Positions 8,594 through 34,507 are shown, numbered from the stretch's first letter. The stretch is DNA of 62,662 bases from an uncultured Elusimicrobia bacterium (GCA_964374095.1 CAYJXJ010000004.1:1-62662); one strand, 5' to 3'. The notes: generated from the sequence alone by a model not told the origin. Made by a program: numbers and translations.

Positions 8594-10121
8594 GGCCGTT
8601 TTTCTCATCGCCGCGGCCGAACTCGTCGCCTTCGGCCTCCTCGCCCCCCGGCTGGGATTCTACTCCGACGACTGGACGTTCCTCGAGAAGGGCTTCGGCG
8701 GAGCCCGCGGCCTGGCCGCCGCCGTCTCGGCCTTCGCCGCCGGGGGGTATTGGACCCGGCCGGTCCAGATCCTGCAGTTTCCCTCCGCCATCGCCCTCGG
8801 ACGGCTCGATCCCTTCCCCTATCAAGTCCTGATGGTGCTCGGCGACGCGGCGGCCGCCTTGCTCTTCTTCCGGCTGTTGGACCGCCTGCTCGGATCGCGC
8901 GAGCTCGCGTCGGCCGCCGCGGTGCTGGCCCTGCTCTACCCCAACCGCGCCGCCGCCCATTTTTGGTTCGCCGCTTCCTCCCAAACCGTGGCGATCATGC
9001 TCGCGCTCGCGAGCCTCCTGTTCTTCCTGGGCTTCGTGAACCGCCGATCGCGCGCGGCGCTTCTGGCGGGACTCGCCCTCTATGTCGCGGCGGTCTTGAG
9101 CTATGAATCCGTGGCGTTCCTGCCGCTGCTGGTCGGAGGGGCGCAGGTGATGCGCTCACGCGAGACGGGGAGGGATTGGGGAAAGGCACTGCGGGACGGT
9201 ATGGCGCCTCTGTGGCCCTACCTCGCGGCGCTTTTGGCGGCCATCGCCTTGCAGGCGATGGCCGCCAAAATGCAGGGCTACAACCCCAAATCCGCCGGCC
9301 TGTCGCTGGGCCATGCCTTGAAGGTTTTCGGAGCCGGGTTCGAGTGCCTCACCAACCGGACCCTCCACGTCTGCTGGAAAACCCTTCCGGCGGTGATGCG
9401 GGAATCGGGGCCGTCGTCCTGGGGGATCTGGGTGGGCTTCTCCCTGGGCGGGGCCGCGGCGCTGCGGCTCGGCGGCATTCCCGCGCAGGTCCTGCGTCTC
9501 GCCGCCGGGGCCGCGGCGGGAGGCTTCATCGGCGCCTATCTCCCCTACGCCCTCTCCTCCAGCTACGTGCCCCAGGTGTTCGGCCCTTTGAGCCGCGGCA
9601 ACGGGGTCGGCGCCTTGATCGGCGGTTTGGGATTGGCCGCGGCCCTCGCGGCCGCCGCCCGGAAAGCCCCTCGAGCGGCCATCGGCGCGAGCGCGCTGGC
9701 GGTGTGGGCCTTCACGGGAGCCGACTGGGGACAGGCCCGGGTTTGGGCCCGAGTCTGGGAGGCCGAGCGCGCCATCTTGGCATCCGTGTCGCCTCAAGCG
9801 CGGCATCTGCCGCGGGGTTCGGTGGTCGTGCTGGAAGAGACCCCGCGAACGGACCGGCCGGCGGCCTTCAACGACCATTACGACTTCGCCGCCGCCCTGC
9901 GCCTGTGGGCCATGCGGCCCGACCTGCAAGGCGAGGTCCGCTCCCCGCGTCTGACGATGGAAGCGCGGGGAGTGGTCGTGCGCGGCGAGGACGGCTCCGA
10001 GCGACGGCATGAGTATGCCCGGACCTATCTTTACCGCGAGGAGACCGGTTCCCTGGAATCACTCAGGAAGCCTTCGCCGACTTACCCACCGGATTTGGAA
10101 CGTCCCAAGTCCGGTGGATAA
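8586..10121 (+). CDS. polytopic membrane protein, GT-C-like candidate partner of the GT2
   Basis: About 10 hydrophobic segments followed by a ~130-aa soluble C-terminus. TTG 8586 overlaps the GT2 stop by 8 nt. No specific family motif recognised. Confidence 0.55.
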   Translation: MIRAVFLIAAAELVAFGLLAPRLGFYSDDWTFLEKGFGGARGLAAAVSAFAAGGYWTRPVQILQFPSAIALGRLDPFPYQVLMVLGDAAAALLFFRLLDRLLGSRELASAAAVLALLYPNRAAAHFWFAASSQTVAIMLALASLLFFLGFVNRRSRAALLAGLALYVAAVLSYESVAFLPLLVGGAQVMRSRETGRDWGKALRDGMAPLWPYLAALLAAIALQAMAAKMQGYNPKSAGLSLGHALKVFGAGFECLTNRTLHVCWKTLPAVMRESGPSSWGIWVGFSLGGAAALRLGGIPAQVLRLAAGAAAGGFIGAYLPYALSSSYVPQVFGPLSRGNGVGALIGGLGLAAALAAAARKAPRAAIGASALAVWAFTGADWGQARVWARVWEAERAILASVSPQARHLPRGSVVVLEETPRTDRPAAFNDHYDFAAALRLWAMRPDLQGEVRSPRLTMEARGVVVRGEDGSERRHEYARTYLYREETGSLESLRKPSPTYPPDLERPKSGG

Positions 10122-10132
10122 CCCCGCGTCGA

Positions 10133-28749: not shown

Positions 28750-30480
28750 CTAGGCGAGCAGTCCGAGAACCCCGTCCACGGTCCTGGCGACATTGCATCC
28801 GTCAAGCCGCCCGGCGTAGGCCTCCAGGAGCCGGGAATGGTCCACACGCTCGGGTATGCGATCGGGCAGAAGTTCCCGCAGGGCGGCGGCCAGGGACTCG
28901 GTCGTCTGGTGGCAGGGCAGGCCCGCGCTCCCATCGAATGGAGCTGTCGCATCGCTGGCCTGAAGGTTGACCAGAACAACCGGCAGGCCCATGGCCATGG
29001 CCTCGATCATGGACGTGGATAGTCCGCCGATCACCAGCGAGCTTTCCCGCAGCACTTCCGCCAAGAGGCGCCTCTCCTCGAGGACGCAGCGCGCGTCGAG
29101 CCGCTGCCCCAGGATCTCCCGGTAGAGCGCCCCGGGTTCGCCGGGATGGGTCTTGACCACGATCCGGACCCTCTCATGGCGCCTGACGAGCTCCACGACG
29201 GGCAGGATATTCTCTCGGACCGGCGCGCAATAGCCGACGACTACGACCTGCGGGACGACCGGCCGGCGGCGCAGGGCTCCGCTATAGCGGTCCAGCAGCG
29301 GAAACCCTGTCACATGAATGCGCTCCCGCGCGACTCCCAGGGAAAGATAGGCCCCAACCGCGACCGTACCGCCGATGAAGAGGTGATCGGCCTGCGTATC
29401 CACGAGCCGCGGGCGGCAGTGGGTCGGTAGGCCGTGCTGGACCAGGGCGGAGGGGATGCCTCGGCGGCGGGCCTCGTAGAGGAGCATCCGCTCCGGGGGG
29501 TTTCCATCGTACGGGACTACCACGAGCTCGGGAGCCCAGGAATCAAGCGCGCGTTGGATCTTGGCGAGCTGGGAGGCCATGAAAGCGAATTCCTCCATCA
29601 CGACCTCGTCGAGAAGGGCGCGCATGGCCTCCCAGGCGGGCAGACCCCCTGGCTCGAAGCGGCGCGCGTAGTCCGCGCTCGAGGAGAGCTCCCTCCACCT
29701 GCGCCCGATCGCCTCCAGCGCATCCACATCCGCGGCACGGAGCGGATCCTCAAAGGACGGATCGGTCAGGAAAGACCAGCGAGTCCATCCTCGCATCGAA
29801 GGAAGCCGCCGGGAGGGCCAGTCGAAGAAGGCCGGCCGGACGCCCTGGCGGCGGCCCAGTTCCTCCAACAGCCCTTCGAGCGTGTAGTAGTAGGAGGCCA
29901 GGACTCGCCGCCCGGACCGCGGCCGCAAGAACCCCAGTCCCCAGTTGAGCAGGCGCCGCTTGAGCGCGTGCGCGCTGAGGGGCCAGGACGAATAGCGGGT
30001 CGCGATCCGAACCTTGTCGCCGACCGCCGGCGCGCCGCGCCATTCCAGGGGGATGGCGCGGCCTCCGCAGAGCCTCTCGATGAGGTTGCGGCGATCCTTC
30101 GACACCTCTCGCTCGGCGATCACCCGGGCCGGCTTCTCCCGCTCCAAGAGCCTGTTGAACTCCCAGGCGAACTTGTAAACCGGTCCGAAAAACGCGCCGT
30201 AGACGAGGCCCTCCAGGCATTTGCCGAGGGAAATCCCGCGAAAGACGGTAAAGTCGCTCCCCGTGACGTCCCGGAACCATGCCTCGGCAAGGTCCTCGCC
30301 CCAGTTCCTCACCGGAGCATCGGGACCAAGGGTCCAGAGGTTAGGGTCGAGAAGAGCGGCCGGAGCGCCGCGGCGCAGGTAGGCTTCGCGGGTCCACTCG
30401 TCCAAGCAGACGACCAGCGCGCCGGGTGGGACCGGCCCGGCGGGCTGGGGGGAGGCTGCGATGTAGAGATCGGCGCTCAA
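28750..30480 (-). CDS. hypothetical 576-aa protein with a GT-B-like C-terminal half
   Basis: VQHGLPTH and GGLSTSMIEAMAMGLPVVLVNL patterns. TTG start at 30480 with TATAAT (30495-30490) 9 nt upstream. Confidence 0.6.
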   Translation of the reverse strand: MSADLYIAASPQPAGPVPPGALVVCLDEWTREAYLRRGAPAALLDPNLWTLGPDAPVRNWGEDLAEAWFRDVTGSDFTVFRGISLGKCLEGLVYGAFFGPVYKFAWEFNRLLEREKPARVIAEREVSKDRRNLIERLCGGRAIPLEWRGAPAVGDKVRIATRYSSWPLSAHALKRRLLNWGLGFLRPRSGRRVLASYYYTLEGLLEELGRRQGVRPAFFDWPSRRLPSMRGWTRWSFLTDPSFEDPLRAADVDALEAIGRRWRELSSSADYARRFEPGGLPAWEAMRALLDEVVMEEFAFMASQLAKIQRALDSWAPELVVVPYDGNPPERMLLYEARRRGIPSALVQHGLPTHCRPRLVDTQADHLFIGGTVAVGAYLSLGVARERIHVTGFPLLDRYSGALRRRPVVPQVVVVGYCAPVRENILPVVELVRRHERVRIVVKTHPGEPGALYREILGQRLDARCVLEERRLLAEVLRESSLVIGGLSTSMIEAMAMGLPVVLVNLQASDATAPFDGSAGLPCHQTTESLAAALRELLPDRIPERVDHSRLLEAYAGRLDGCNVARTVDGVLGLLA

Positions 30481-30511
30481 GTCCGTGGGATTATATTAAA
30501 CCCGGCGCCCG

Positions 30512-30540
30512 TTGACCCCTCTCCGACGGAAAAGCTATTC
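30512..30540 (+). promoter_or_regulatory. promoter copy attached to the truncated ligase fragment (TTGACC-17/18-(C)TATTCT)
   Basis: Aligns with the promoter at 32905-32933 (TTGACC, then ..CGACGGAAA..). Confidence 0.3.
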
Positions 30541-30547
30541 TGCGCGG

Positions 30548-30700
30548 ATGTGCCCGTTGGACCTTCTCAAGATCGCCGAGCAGAACCAGGACCGGCCCTT
30601 CCTCATCGCCCCGGACCGCCCGGTGACCTTGACCTACGCCGAATTCCACGGGGCGGCCCTGGGTCTGGCTGCCCGCCTCCAGGAAGAGGGGCCGCGCGTA
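30548..30700 (+). pseudogene. 5' fragment (~50 codons) of an AMP-dependent ligase paralogue
   Basis: MCPLDLLKIAEQNQDRPFLIAPDRPVTLTYAEFHGAALGLAARLQEEG aligns with residues 1-50 of the intact ligase at 32960. Similarity stops near 30690. Confidence 0.6.
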
Positions 30701-30713
30701 ACGCGCCGCCATT

Positions 30714-30884
30714 TCAAGACCCGCGGCCATAAAGGCCTGCGTCGGCGTAGTGGCGATAGAGCTAGTCGCCCTTGGTCTTGAAGTAGCGCTCGATGCCTTC
30801 CTTCTGGACCTGGATCGAGTGGCCTTCCTCGGCCCGCACCTCGGTCGAGACGCGCTTATACGCCACCCATATCATCGCGCTCAT
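30714..30884 (-). pseudogene. serine recombinase (resolvase/invertase-type) N-terminal remnant with an in-frame stop
   Basis: Hand translation gives MSAMIWVAYKRVSTEVRAEEGHSIQVQKEGIERYFKTKGD*LYRHYADAGLYGRGS*. It has the Y.RVST catalytic-serine motif and a Y.D.G..G block, and is truncated after ~55 codons. Confidence 0.6.
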
Positions 30885-30986
30885 GTCACCCCCACAGGCA
30901 ACTCAGTAATAGCTTGATACAACTTGCTACAGCCATGAATTAAGCCTCTGCCGTCGATCTTGTTACAAAGCTTGTTAGCCCATCTA

Positions 30987-32708
30987 TCAAGCAGCTCGCT
31001 TTCTAATCCGGTAAGTCTGCTTTGGACTGTGCTTGTTCTTCTCGGTTCCTTCCAGAACCCCCATTTTAAGAAGCTCCCGCACGGTGACCCTGGCATATGG
31101 CGTGGACAGCTTGCAGCCCTCGACAATCTGCTTGATGCTGACCGTGCCCTCCTTCTGAACGAAACCAAAAACCATCCGGTGCCTCGCCTTCCAAGCCGCC
31201 ACCTTCGGCGGGAGCGTGGCCTCTGTGAAGGCCGCAGCAAGCTCGTAGACGGCCCAGCGCCGCGAACCGAGCTGGTTGAGAAGGCCCAGCTCGCGCAACC
31301 CCGCAAGTTCCGCGGTCGCCATGCGCGAGTCGCACTGATTCAGCCGACTATAGTCCAGGTTCCGGATCGTGTGGTGTTTTCTCACCAGAGCCAGGGCCAG
31401 CCTCTGGCCGTCGTTGAGAGGGAAACCCGCAAGCTGATTGAGCCAGGTTACGGTCCCTTCATCGAGAAGAGACTCGTTGGAGAACGTGACGCGGAAGTAG
31501 GTCCTGCCGTCCTCGAACTCGGGGGGAGGCAAGTGCGCTTTGGCGAGTTGGGCGCTGACCGTGCGTATTCCCGATCCGCGATTTTCAGCGAGCCCTATCT
31601 CTTCAAGCATCCGCATCAAGTAGACGTTACGGGACGCCTGAACGCCCGCCTCGCCCAATGTCTCCTCCGTCACGGGACCGAAAAGCCCGCCGGGGCTTTG
31701 GACCACCAATCCGTCGGAGAACATCTTGACCTGCACCTGGCTTCCCAACGCGCCCGGGCCGTAGTCCCTATGGCCGACGGCGTTGACCAGTACCTCTCTG
31801 ACGGCCAGTTCGGGATACTCCGCGATCTCTTCCGACATGAGGCCGGTCTTGAGCGTCCTCCGTTGCATGTTCCGGCGAATAACATCCAACGCCCCCTCCA
31901 GCATGTCCGGCATGGTGCCCTCGATTTTCTGATTCTCGATGATTTGCGAGGCGTCGCGGGACCCTTCCTTAGCAGTACCCGCGTATCTCACCACAGTGAT
32001 GCAAAGATTAGGAAACTCCCCCTGGGGATACTTGCCAAACATCAGCCAGCCGGCCATGCTGGGCACAACCGCCGGCTCCGACCCTCTCCGGCTGGAAATC
32101 TTGTAAGTCTGCGAGAGGACCTCCTCCGATTGGCTCAAATGCTTCGCGTGGGGACGCCGCTCCCGTAAAGTGGCGAAGAACTTCTTGATTCGCTCTTGAT
32201 CCACGGCGTCCCACTCGACGCGCGCGGGGGGCCTGATATCTTCCTCCGGCTGCCCCCTAGCCGCAATGTAGCTCTGCACCTCGTAGTCGGTCATGACGCG
32301 GTCGCTGTCGCCGACCCGAATGAAAGCGCCCGCTGGCAAGCCCTTGGGCCGGTAAAAGCAGGGCTTATGGTGACGCGGGCACTCGGGAATGGAAACGACC
32401 AGCACCCGCTTTCCTCTTTCCACCGTGAACGTGTCGAAGGCTGGCCGGATCGGCGGCTCCATCTCCGCGCAGGCGTTTCCAATGTCCCTTTGGAGAGCGT
32501 CGAGCTGCTTCAAGCCGGTAGGCTGGAAAAGGTCGGGTGACAGGCCAAGGATCAAGGTCCCGCCGCCGGAGCGATTCGCGAGGGCGGACAATGACTGCCA
32601 CAACCGGGTCGGGGTTCCGCCGGCGGCGTCCTTGACCTCGATATCATCCAGCTCAGAGCCCCTTTCTCTGAGACTCTTGAGCAGTTCATCAAAATCTACC
32701 TTGAGCAT
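30987..32708 (-). CDS. AlbA_2 (Schlafen-like) + HATPase_c_4 (GHKL-like) + tandem wHTH protein
   Basis: DIEVKDAAGG...LSALANRSGGGTLILGL (AlbA_2 signature). REVLVNAVGHRDY...SPGGL...ENRGSGI (RecG-C/HATPase_c_4 signature). Start taken as ATG 32708, preceded by GGAGG 4 nt upstream. Confidence 0.85.
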   Translation of the reverse strand: MLKVDFDELLKSLRERGSELDDIEVKDAAGGTPTRLWQSLSALANRSGGGTLILGLSPDLFQPTGLKQLDALQRDIGNACAEMEPPIRPAFDTFTVERGKRVLVVSIPECPRHHKPCFYRPKGLPAGAFIRVGDSDRVMTDYEVQSYIAARGQPEEDIRPPARVEWDAVDQERIKKFFATLRERRPHAKHLSQSEEVLSQTYKISSRRGSEPAVVPSMAGWLMFGKYPQGEFPNLCITVVRYAGTAKEGSRDASQIIENQKIEGTMPDMLEGALDVIRRNMQRRTLKTGLMSEEIAEYPELAVREVLVNAVGHRDYGPGALGSQVQVKMFSDGLVVQSPGGLFGPVTEETLGEAGVQASRNVYLMRMLEEIGLAENRGSGIRTVSAQLAKAHLPPPEFEDGRTYFRVTFSNESLLDEGTVTWLNQLAGFPLNDGQRLALALVRKHHTIRNLDYSRLNQCDSRMATAELAGLRELGLLNQLGSRRWAVYELAAAFTEATLPPKVAAWKARHRMVFGFVQKEGTVSIKQIVEGCKLSTPYARVTVRELLKMGVLEGTEKNKHSPKQTYRIRKRAA

Positions 32709-32733
32709 TGGCCCTCCGCTACTTGATACATAC

Positions 32734-32762
32734 ATGATAATATATTATTAAGTTATTATCAA
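32734..32762 (-). promoter_or_regulatory. sigma70 promoter of the AlbA_2 gene (TTGATA-17-TATCAT)
   Basis: Read on the minus strand: -35 at 32762-32757, -10 at 32739-32734. Very AT-rich context. The -10 covers the first in-frame ATG (32735), which favours ATG 32708 as the start. Confidence 0.5.
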
Positions 32763-32904
32763 GTGCCTATCCGGACCCGCCTTTCGAGGCGGTTGCCGTT
32801 GGTTATCCACGATACTTGAACGTTCCACGTGCGGTGGAAAACTCGGCTTCCCACCACCCGCACGCGATGCTTTCAAAACCCCGTGAACATGGACGGGCAT
32901 CCGA

Positions 32905-32933
32905 TTGACCCTTATCGACGGAAAGGTTAGACT
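32905..32933 (+). promoter_or_regulatory. candidate promoter of the acyl-loading operon (TTGACC-17-TAGACT)
   Basis: Hexamers at 32905-32910 and 32928-32933, 26 nt upstream of ATG 32960. A diverged copy lies at 30512. Confidence 0.4.
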
Positions 32934-32959
32934 CTTGGCGTCGTGAAAACCCTTCCCGC

Positions 32960-34507
32960 ATGACTCCCCAAGACGTCATCCGCCGGGCCGAGGAGAGCCG
33001 GGACCATCCGTTTCTCATCGTGCCGGACCGCCGCCTCGCCCTGAGCTATGGGGAATTCCACGAGGCGGCGCTGGGCCTCGCCTGCCGGCTGCAAGAGGAA
33101 GGACTGGGCCGCGGAGACCGTCTCGTGGCCCTCCTGCCCAACTCCCCGGAATACGCGATCCTCTTCTTCGCCGCCCTCTACATGGGCGCGACCGTCGCCA
33201 CCGCCAACCCCGCGTTGAGCCCCGCGGTCATCTCGCGCGTGATCCGCGGCTCCCGGGGAAAGCTCCTCGTCTACGCCGAGGAAACGAAGCGCTTCCTGCT
33301 GGGCGCCAACAAGCCCGCCGACCCGATCCCGGCCTGGCTCCTGCCGCGCCTCAACGAACCCCTCTTCAATATCCCCTGGCGCAACCCCCCGTACGCGCCC
33401 TTGGAAGGGGTCTCCGGGCAGGATCTCTGGACCATCGTCTTCACCTCCGGAACCACGGCTTTCCCCAAGGCCGTGGCCCACACCATCGCCAACCTTTTGG
33501 GCAATGCCACGGCTTTCAACCGGGAAATGGGGATCGGCCGCGACAACCGCTTTCTCCACCTGCTGCCCATGGCCACCAGCGCCGGATTCTTCAACGTCCT
33601 GATCTCGCCCTTTCTCGCGGGCGCCAGCGTGGTCCTCACCCCGGGATTCGGGCCCCGCACCGCGCTGGAGTTCTGGCGCCTGCCCAGCGAGAACGGGGTC
33701 GACACCCTCTGGCTGACGCCCTCCATCGCCGGGGCCTTGCTGAAGGTGGACCGCGACGCCGCGGGCAAGGCCTGGTGCCGCCGAAGCATCAGGAGAATAT
33801 TCATCGGGACGGCTCCCCTCGCCCCCAAGGTCAAGCGCGACTTCGAAGCGGATTATGGAGTCCCCCTGTGGGAAAGCTACGGCCTCTCCGAGACCCTGTT
33901 GGTCTCAGGCAACGGCCCGACGACCGGCGCCGTCGAGGGCGCGGTCGGACGCGTCCTCCCCGGAATTTCGGCGGCGATTCGAGACGACCAAGGCCGTGAC
34001 GTCGCGGCCGGGACTGAAGGCGAGATCTTCATCAAGACCCCGCATATGATGGCCGGCTACCTCGATGACGCGACCGGACAGGCGGCGCGTCCCGATGACG
34101 AATGGTTCCCATCCGGCGACCTCGGCACCCTCGCGGCGGACGGCCTCCTGCGCATCACGGGCCGCAAGAAAGACCTCATCATACGGGGCAGCCTCAACAT
34201 CAGCCCCGCGGCGCTCGAGAACGTCCTTCTCCAGCACGAAGCCGTGGCCCAAGCCGCGGTCGTCGGCGTGCCCGACGCGGTGGCCGGCGAGGAGGTCGTG
34301 GCCGTCCTCAAACTCAAGGCCGGCAGGGTCTGGATCCAGGAGCGCGCCGGGCTCGAGGCTTACTGCAGGAACAGCTTCCCCGCCCCCAACCGCCCGACCC
34401 GCCTCCTGGAGATCGACGATTTCCCCTCGGGCCCGACCGGGAAGGTCTTGAAGCGCGAAATCCGCGCCTGGGCCGTCAAGGCTCTGGCCGCCGAGGTTCA
34501 ACCATGA
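32960..34507 (+). CDS. AMP-dependent synthetase/ligase (adenylate-forming enzyme)
   Basis: FTSGTTAFPKAV (A3 core), YGLSET, GDLG..DG.L.I.GRKKDLI motifs. Confidence 0.9.
   Translation: MTPQDVIRRAEESRDHPFLIVPDRRLALSYGEFHEAALGLACRLQEEGLGRGDRLVALLPNSPEYAILFFAALYMGATVATANPALSPAVISRVIRGSRGKLLVYAEETKRFLLGANKPADPIPAWLLPRLNEPLFNIPWRNPPYAPLEGVSGQDLWTIVFTSGTTAFPKAVAHTIANLLGNATAFNREMGIGRDNRFLHLLPMATSAGFFNVLISPFLAGASVVLTPGFGPRTALEFWRLPSENGVDTLWLTPSIAGALLKVDRDAAGKAWCRRSIRRIFIGTAPLAPKVKRDFEADYGVPLWESYGLSETLLVSGNGPTTGAVEGAVGRVLPGISAAIRDDQGRDVAAGTEGEIFIKTPHMMAGYLDDATGQAARPDDEWFPSGDLGTLAADGLLRITGRKKDLIIRGSLNISPAALENVLLQHEAVAQAAVVGVPDAVAGEEVVAVLKLKAGRVWIQERAGLEAYCRNSFPAPNRPTRLLEIDDFPSGPTGKVLKREIRAWAVKALAAEVQP

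Follow-up and report, generated by a model that had tools for sequence, protein, structure and literature searches.

A probable decayed large serine recombinase mini-island joined to the stub of an AMP-binding ligase gene in an uncultured Elusimicrobia bacterium

The window analysed here, a contig of 62,662 nucleotides taken whole (C4; CAYJXJ010000004.1), belongs to a metagenome-assembled genome (MAG; GCA_964374095.1) of an uncultured Elusimicrobia bacterium that comprises 4.8 Mb in 317 contigs; the protein relatives that carry names also belong to the Elusimicrobia/Elusimicrobiota. Between a minus-strand glycosyltransferase gene (28750–30480) and a plus-strand operon headed by a ligase gene, it contains a fragment of a second ligase gene, a fragment of a recombinase gene and an intact gene with an AlbA_2 domain. 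We consider it likely (a probability of roughly 0.7) that this region represents a small, decayed island of the type moved by a large serine recombinase (LSR), which was joined to the ligase stub by one illegitimate event, probably a deletion. A preliminary description of this DNA had recognized a decayed serine-recombinase element beside a truncated ligase duplicate in a glycan gene cluster; nearly all of the elements it named were recovered where it had placed them or a few bases off, and the mosaic nature of the locus is supported.

The recombinase fragment is a pseudogene stub on the minus strand (30726–30884) comprising codons 1–53 of an LSR gene, with a TAG at codon 41. Its 56-residue translation, with the TAG read through, is 85% identical to residues 1–54 of P0244 (E = 1.5e-21), an LSR of 509 amino acids with an open frame and with Resolvase, Recombinase and Zn_ribbon_recom domains. 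Among solved structures the TP901-1 integrase is the best match (E = 3.4e-4), and the Pfam Resolvase score of the stub, 19.5 bits (E = 0.0011), lies below the cut-off of 23.3. The motif of the catalytic serine, YKRVST, is kept at codons 9–14, and the EEQ that should follow it is now EVR (YKRVSTEVR); compared with P0244, glutamine 41 is replaced by the TAG, E16V and Q17R stand beside the catalytic serine and there are several further changes. Nucleotide identity to L043, the 2-kb metagenome contig that encodes P0244, is 86.8% over codons 1–53 and falls to 43% beyond 30726. The Recombinase (PF07508) and zinc-ribbon (PF13408) domains, both present in P0244, P0278 and P0280, are missing from the stub. 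Because the sequence ends at codon ~53–61, the window holds a fragment of an LSR gene and not a gene. The remnant had previously been placed at 30884–30714; its catalytic motif, TAG and truncation were confirmed, but the residues behind YKRVST are degraded and LSR codons 1–53 reach only to ~30726, a minus-strand TGA at 30716–30714 lying already within the junction to the ligase stub. No other piece of this LSR was found in the organism's own genome, and searches of JGI metagenome contigs and of 60 related genomes gave no close LSR relatives.

The AlbA_2 gene, also on the minus strand (30987–32708), is intact and encodes 573 amino acids, with homologues of the same length at 73–96% amino acid identity. 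Its AlbA_2 (Schlafen-like) domain (PF04326, residues 30–148; 51.6 bits with a cut-off of 25.3, E = 1.7e-13) is followed by HATPase_c_4 (PF13749, residues 331–418; 85.1 bits with a cut-off of 26, E = 3.5e-24) and by a C-terminal winged helix (wHTH) with a weak match (HTH_24, E = 0.002, below the cut-off), so that the single AlbA_2-GHKL-wHTH gene described earlier was recovered. Translation starts at the ATG at 32708, with GGAGGG ahead of it, the codon at 32735 not being the true start, and the promoter TTGATA-17-TATCAT lies at 32762–32734 on the minus strand. The GC content over 30898–32764 is 0.59 vs. 0.68 in the flanks. A promoter scan revealed only four sigma-70-like sites in 18 kb, three of which are this promoter and the ligase promoters PA and PB discussed below. 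The earlier picture of an AT-richer block with a promoter and a Shine-Dalgarno sequence of its own, signals otherwise rare in the window, therefore holds.

That the stub and the AlbA_2 gene belong together is indicated by L043, in which the LSR start is preceded by the last 80 nt of the AlbA_2 gene with the 3' flank of this gene and which is colinear with window positions 31070–30726 (91% identity in the AlbA_2 3' end, 90% in the flank and 87% in LSR codons 1–53). In the window this flank, up to the ribosome-binding site of the LSR (30885–30986, minus strand), is 90.4% identical to L043 and contains several CTTGATA/TATCAAG-type motifs. Because L043 runs colinearly from AlbA_2 into the LSR, AlbA_2 followed by LSR is a real two-gene module, which supports the earlier suggestion that both are parts of one decayed mobile element.

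The boundaries of the block are equally informative. Its left end (32709–32764, minus strand) is formed by a 44-nt imperfect palindrome, ACTTGATAATAAC..GTATCAAGT, which holds TTGATA-17-TATCAT and is succeeded by the GGAGGG Shine-Dalgarno sequence. In L042 (the closest copy, 95% nucleotide identity), L026, L029, L031 and L033, DNA homology starts at ACTTGATA, i.e., at window position 32764/5, and the flanks are unrelated; the sole exception is L037, in which the similarity extends over ~35 further flank bases, to 32798, at ~71%, perhaps because the target sequences were similar. These copies occupy different places: those of L026/L041 (Elusimicrobia UBA9639) lie between a metallophosphatase and a MiaB-like gene, downstream of hrcA-grpE-dnaK-dnaJ, that of L037 adjoins a Fic gene, that of L031 lies in another glycan cluster, and others occur in further unrelated contexts. 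The left end is not confined to AlbA_2 cargo. L046, which has a 90% identical LSR and HTH_3 and Fic genes as cargo, opens with the same motif (ACTTGATAAT..TATCATG..CAAGTAGC) and, because it shares this end with a different cargo, the palindrome is considered an end feature of the element family rather than of the AlbA_2 gene only. The right boundary is ragged: the 3' flank (30885–30986) is conserved in L026, L029 and L031, and homology ends variously at window positions 30898, 30912, 30954 and 30959, a pattern that would fit independent losses of the LSR. A search for target-site duplications or attachment (att)-like repeats flanking the block yielded only short repeats at chance level; a pair of 9-nt CTTGATACA motifs, noticed by eye, was rejected as a flanking repeat, being within chance expectation and belonging to the element-internal motifs.

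Beyond the left end follows a spacer of host DNA (32765–32895), of which 32765–32798 is the part resembling the L037 flank and 32802–32842 is a degenerate copy of a palindromic repeat (GTTATCCAC..ACTTGGAACGTTCCAAGT..GTGGATAAC) found at 43 loci in the genome. Because the 130 bp between the left end and PB hold this dispersed host repeat, the PB side is assigned to the host. The repeat itself is ~44 nt long (GTTATCCAC-N3-ACTTGGAACGTTCCAAGT-N3-GTGGATAAC) and occurs also at ~10075–10130 in the window and, for example, at C158:10506–10574 and C147:10030–10089; its arms are identical to the DnaA-box consensus TTATCCAC, and it has no Rfam match and behaves like intergenic repeats of the REP (repetitive extragenic palindrome) type.

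On the opposite side, the block meets the relic of a ligase gene, here termed ligA, which is a partial counterpart of the intact ligase gene ligB. The latter (32960–34507, plus strand; 515 amino acids; Pfam AMP-binding, E = 1.6e-68) is preceded by its promoter and leader PB (32896–32959, plus strand; TTGACC-17-TAGACT) and heads a conserved operon of ligase, cyclase-fold protein, carrier protein and a 760-aa protein (ORF760), the order of which downstream of ligB is kept in three related genomes (G001, G005, and G031). The relic (30548–30697, plus strand) comprises the first 48–49 codons of a diverged AMP-binding ligase homologue; it begins with the ATG at 30548, translates as MCPLDLLKIAEQNQDRPFLIAPDRPVTLTYAEFHGAALGLAARLQEEG and contains no internal stops, and its frame continues as junk to a stop at 30781. 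Its promoter and short leader, PA (30503–30547, plus strand; TTGACC-18-TATTCT), are homologous to PB, with TATTCT in place of TAGACT as the -10 element, and PA sits in a divergent intergenic region of 67 bp shared with the glycosyltransferase gene. 

A MAFFT alignment of 30490–30720 with 32895–33135 has 76% column identity, and the coding part of ligA, searched against the genome, gave E = 1.3e-11 with blastn and 63% amino acid identity over 48 codons with tblastn (E ~1e-14); over codons 1–48, ligA and ligB are 67% identical in nucleotides and 63% in amino acids. The promoter part alone (CCG-TTGACCC..CGACGGAAA) reaches a local alignment score of 26, compared with 14.4 ± 2.2 for 2000 shuffles, none of which (0/2000) attained this score. 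The formal alignment of the two 5' regions thus beats chance, and the duplication of promoter and ~50 codons, first reported for 30512–30690 with a break near 30690, was found to span 30503–30697, with the homology ending at ~30692–30697. The promoter motif has no third occurrence in the 4.8-Mb genome beyond PA and PB, so that a regulon-wide promoter motif was rejected. Because the homology to ligB is significant (E 1e-14) yet only the first 48 codons are present, 30548–30697 is a gene fragment. Its Pfam AMP-binding match (17 bits, E = 0.0026) remains below the cut-off of 29.9, and it is without the (T/S)SG(T/S)TGxPK loop, which in ligB is at residues ~162–170. The remainder of ligA was not found elsewhere in the genome assembly.

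The differences between the two ligase genes are not those of simple decay. Over 144 sites there are 48 nucleotide differences, distributed as 11/13/24 over codon positions 1/2/3, and the method of Nei and Gojobori gives a nonsynonymous divergence (dN) of 0.25, a synonymous divergence (dS) of ~2, which is saturated, and a dN/dS of ~0.12. This pattern shows that ligA and ligB diverged under purifying selection, with the stub as a relic of a once-functional homologue, and because of the dN/dS and the codon-position pattern ligA is not a copy of ligB that decayed in place. It is the head of a homologue on which selection acted during most of the period after the two genes separated, and its truncation is comparatively recent; the absence of stops and frameshifts gives the recency weak support, as it concerns 48 codons only.

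Between the two truncated genes lies a junction (30698–30725) of filler or heavily scrambled LSR sequence; as judged by eye, LSR-like sequence may run to ~30702, and the gap between ligase and LSR is then 4 to 25 bp. The two stubs are convergent at this point. The fusion at LSR codon ~53–61 represents an illegitimate join or deletion and not an att junction, and a single deletion, or another illegitimate join, is its simplest origin.

The history that we favour is as follows. An island of ~3.5 kb, with the left end ACTTGATA, the AlbA_2/HATPase_c_4/wHTH cargo gene under its own promoter and the LSR reading outward, would have landed in the glycan cluster, presumably by action of its LSR, at a point where its left end came to lie ~130 bp ahead of the promoter of the ligase operon. 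One illegitimate event would then have removed everything outward from LSR codon ~54–61, i.e., the rest of the LSR, the right attachment junction and adjoining host DNA, and the break would have been joined to codon 48 of the second, diverged ligase gene, convergent to the LSR, most likely by a single deletion. The cargo gene would have been left intact and immobile, and the LSR stub would later have gained its nonsense codon and the changes in the catalytic motif. In this history ligA would have been the head of a neighbouring paralogous operon, the body of which was deleted together with the recombinase, and the dispersed palindrome beside PB would have marked the end of that operon. Because no ligase-like sequence accompanies the element at its other locations, it was neither the source nor the cause of the ligase duplicate; before the junction arose, ligA, or at least its head, must already have been present in the host on one side of the element, with PB and ligB on the other.

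Several observations weigh against this history. No empty site was found among the relatives, in which the closest ligases are 57–67% identical and synteny upstream of the ligase is not conserved. As there is neither an empty site nor a closely related genome (closest ligase 67%), we infer both the insertion and the length of the deletion. Two tandem ligase operons were not seen in any relative examined and, with regard to the origin of ligA, the ligase gene of the relatives is mostly placed mid-operon behind a DUF4910 gene, without a promoter of the PA/PB type. In L029, L031 and L033 the AlbA_2 block is without a detectable LSR relic, which makes a self-moving cassette conceivable. The evidence from L043 comes from only 2 kb of sequence, in which the LSR ends abnormally against a truncated tRNA-synthetase fragment. 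Finally, L046 and C151, a contig of the same genome with an LSR relic (see below), are ~80% identical throughout, with no step in identity that would place the LSR crossover. The earlier idea of an integration into a paralogous ligase operon, or of a recombination with it, is possible, but neither the remainder of ligA in the assembly nor a relative with an empty site was found to back it.

A serious alternative, though one that we consider unlikely, is allelic import. Here everything from the LSR stub rightwards (the AlbA_2 gene, the spacer, PB, ligB and part of the operon behind it) would have come from a diverged relative by homology-facilitated illegitimate recombination, with the homology anchor somewhere downstream and the illegitimate join at ligA codon 48, and ligA would be the 5' remnant of the resident allele. 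In accordance with this, ligA directly adjoins the resident glycosyltransferase gene, with which it shares the 67-bp intergenic region, and its 63% identity to ligB is no closer than its identity to ligases of another genus of the same family (66–68%). Synteny with relatives is kept downstream of ligB only, not upstream, the left junction is illegitimate, with its 4–25 bp of filler, and a second ligase operon was seen in no relative. However, the spacer upstream of PB contains the repeat of 43 genome loci, which argues that the PB side is resident or stems from a very close relative; GC content and GC at third codon positions of ligB match those of the rest of the genome; and no right-hand recombination boundary was found. 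Moreover, PA and PB are homologous and unseen in other lineages, and the closest relative with an intergenic gap before its ligase gene has a promoter unrelated to either. Because the ligases of relatives lack this promoter, PA and PB mark a narrow shared ancestry, and both copies would come from the same narrow lineage.

Less probable still is an autonomous AlbA_2 cassette that was moved by other means and, in the ancestor shared by the window and L043 copies, came by chance to lie beside an unrelated LSR gene, which would be its neighbour and not its vehicle. The blocks of L029/L030, L031/L032 and L033–L036, which have no detectable downstream LSR relic, and the inverted CTTGATA/TATCAAG motifs near both ends of the block would be in line with this. 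Yet the left-end motif is common to L046, with its different cargo and 90% identical LSR, the L026 block is accompanied by an LSR 3' relic at the usual miaB site of the LSR, and the block encodes no transposase-like domain in Pfam. In addition, only the left boundary is sharp, the LSR side being ragged as repeated LSR loss predicts.

A direct duplicate of a gene end around an integrase-bearing block is also the signature of elements that carry a replacement gene end. Integration of phage 21 and e14 at icd duplicates the gene end beside the integrase-bearing block, the element carrying the replacement end. Applied to the window, the element would have integrated in a ligase gene, bringing its own promoter and the first ~50 codons, so that ligB would consist of an element-derived 5' part and the 3' part of the host gene, and ligA would be the displaced 5' end of the host gene. 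The relatives of the LSR, which overlap the start of a MiaB-like gene and thus occupy its extreme 5' end, are compatible with such a mechanism. In six other contexts, however, the element ends at 32764/5 (by 32798 in L037) with no PB-like or ligase-5'-like sequence, the spacer from the element end to PB has a dispersed repeat of host type, the LSR end is convergent to ligA and truncated inside the catalytic domain and is, consequently, no att site, and the longest identical run between the two ligase copies is ~10 bp. This model, to which we assign a very small likelihood, was rejected on the boundary data, as the duplicated end does not travel with the element. A phase switch or shufflon driven by a serine invertase was also rejected, since the two ligase 5' copies are direct, not inverted, repeats and the recombinase is of the large integrase type and not an invertase of ~190 amino acids. 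A chimeric join between ligA and the LSR in a MAG of 317 contigs with an estimated contamination of 5.8% is the least credible explanation, because an independently assembled contig of 102.9 kb (GCA_947085715.1) is identical to the window over 30400–33200, the same ligase with the same neighbours occurs on three contigs and no repeat at the junction is long enough to mislead an assembler.

The relatives of the LSR indicate that its usual home is another one. In L046 and L047, with LSRs that are 90% and 67% identical, the LSR is the last gene before a MiaB-like radical-SAM gene, lying directly upstream of it, co-directional and overlapping its start. At this miaB site, L026 carries the AlbA_2 block together with a short remnant of the LSR 3' end (KLYNAVL). 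In the organism's own genome, contig C151 encodes, immediately ahead of a MiaB-like gene, LSR residues ~466–509 (82% identical to P0244), in the same clpP-hrcA-grpE-dnaK-dnaJ-rsmE neighbourhood and in an island with AbiEii, DUF6088 and HTH_3. The window copy is at a non-canonical place, as is L043. The earlier reading, a serine-recombinase element in decay whose one cargo gene is of the AlbA_2 type, thus stands, refined to an LSR mini-island whose relatives sit at a MiaB-like gene and not at a ligase gene. The family thus comprises LSR islands of very small size, the cargo of which is interchangeable and of a defence or toxin-antitoxin type. With more hesitation, we put forward the possibility that they form an undescribed Elusimicrobia family, with one stranded copy in the window, of minimal (~3.5 kb) LSR islands that deliver one defence- or toxin-like module at a time (AlbA_2/HATPase_c_4/wHTH, HTH-Fic or AbiEii) to the extreme 5' end of a gene for a MiaB-like methylthiotransferase and in which the 44-nt palindrome ACTTGATA..TATCAAGT is both recombinase arm and cargo promoter and AlbA_2 is the selected payload; the latter would explain its survival through repeated loss of the LSR.

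The relic on C151 belongs to a second decayed island of the LSR family, at the rsmE/miaB-like site (C151:1445–4650), in which HTH_3, a nucleotidyltransferase-like open reading frame (ORF), DUF6088 and an AbiEii toxin gene are followed by the LSR remnant; an inverted ACTTGATAC end-motif abuts this remnant at C151:1550 and hints at a rearrangement. The idea that a single event gave rise to both the C151 relic and the stub in the window was dropped as unsupported, as the former begins at ~codon 466 and the latter runs to ~53–61, and no remainder of ligA is present at C151. The genome has MiaB-like genes at C108:35–1249 and C151:39–1379, which are 54–58% identical to the L026 protein; that on C108 starts 35 nt from the contig end and that on C151 is broken by a run of N, and the assembly breaks just upstream of one of them. 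In L043 (1687–2021), the LSR no longer follows the sequence of its relatives beyond codon 500 (ECLKLL) and runs over a truncated fragment of a class-I aminoacyl-tRNA synthetase encoded on the other strand; this LSR copy may also be stranded, via a convergent junction geometry like that of the window. An unrelated, intact LSR (28% identical to P0244, an open frame of 543 amino acids) and, 3.3 kb away, a distant AlbA_2/HATPase_c_4 paralogue (25% identity) occur on C28 (16895–18346 and 21635–22642), and further paralogues are present on C278, C43, C12 and C60.

The cargo protein resembles hundreds of homologues in domain order and in length (~560–590 amino acids), whose annotations read ‘ATP-binding protein’, ‘putative DNA-binding domain-containing protein’ or, in error, ‘RecG’. 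PADLOC matches it only with Argonaute-associated proteins and a prokaryotic Argonaute (pAgo) model, no relative was found among viral contigs, and a literature search on the function of the AlbA_2/HATPase_c_4 family gave nothing usable. From the company that it keeps, i.e., sister islands with Fic and AbiEii, and from this only, we infer a possible role in defence or addiction.

Other features of the region concern its expression. PA is intact and could still drive a junk ORF of 77 codons (30548–30781, plus strand), consisting of 48 ligase and 29 out-of-frame codons, or an antisense RNA that would traverse the LSR stub; at 30752–30770 there is a weak terminator-like hairpin. The predicted TTG start of the glycosyltransferase gene at 30480 is only ~7–8 nt downstream of a minus-strand TATAAT seen by eye, and this gene may be leaderless or start further in. 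A search of 30300–33200 against Rfam gave no RNA family match, and plasmid and phage collections gave no DNA match to the region.

Compared with known systems, the island shares several traits with elements and prophages that are moved by LSRs (the TP901-1, phiC31, Bxb1 and A118 integrases, the TnpX/TndX transposons and the ccr genes of SCCmec). These are a resolvase-type N-terminal domain with YxRVST, a recombinase gene at the element edge that reads outward, with Resolvase, Recombinase and Zn_ribbon_recom domains in P0244, and an integration site at one end of a particular host gene, which in this family is a MiaB-like gene entered at its 5' end. It differs in that the elements of the family are tiny (~3.4 kb in L046 and an inferred ~3.5 kb in the window), carry one to three genes as cargo and have none of a phage or conjugation type, and in that the window copy is off the canonical site and has lost all but 53 LSR codons. 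It also resembles defective or cryptic integrated elements, in which the integrase is a truncated pseudogene and the cargo is intact, the cargo being repeatedly found without a recombinase (L026, L029, L031, and L033); here, however, the integrase stub is joined to the stub of a homologue of a host biosynthetic gene. One deletion probably removed both the mobility gene and a glycan-modification gene. The likeness to the icd duplicate of phage 21/e14 lies in the diverged direct duplicate of a gene end flanking an integrase block, with mostly synonymous differences, but the window duplicate is a 5' end with its promoter, it is not borne by the element elsewhere and its junction is not an att site, so that membership of this class was rejected.

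The odd junction in the glycan cluster would thus be explained by a decay event that probably removed a mobility gene together with most of a second acyl-loading ligase gene, or of an older allele, and the present chemistry of the cluster may be a reduced version of an earlier one. The locus offers a compact and traceable example of a single cargo gene that became fixed after the loss of its recombinase. It represents ordinary genome decay, unusually well documented, that does not overturn current understanding. It also points to a family of small LSR islands whose cargo is interchangeable and which prefer the 5' end of a MiaB-like gene as their target; recombinases of this kind, with their sites, are of interest for catalogues of LSRs as genome-engineering tools, and the recurrent AlbA_2/HATPase_c_4 cargo is a reasonable candidate for tests of phage defence or addiction.

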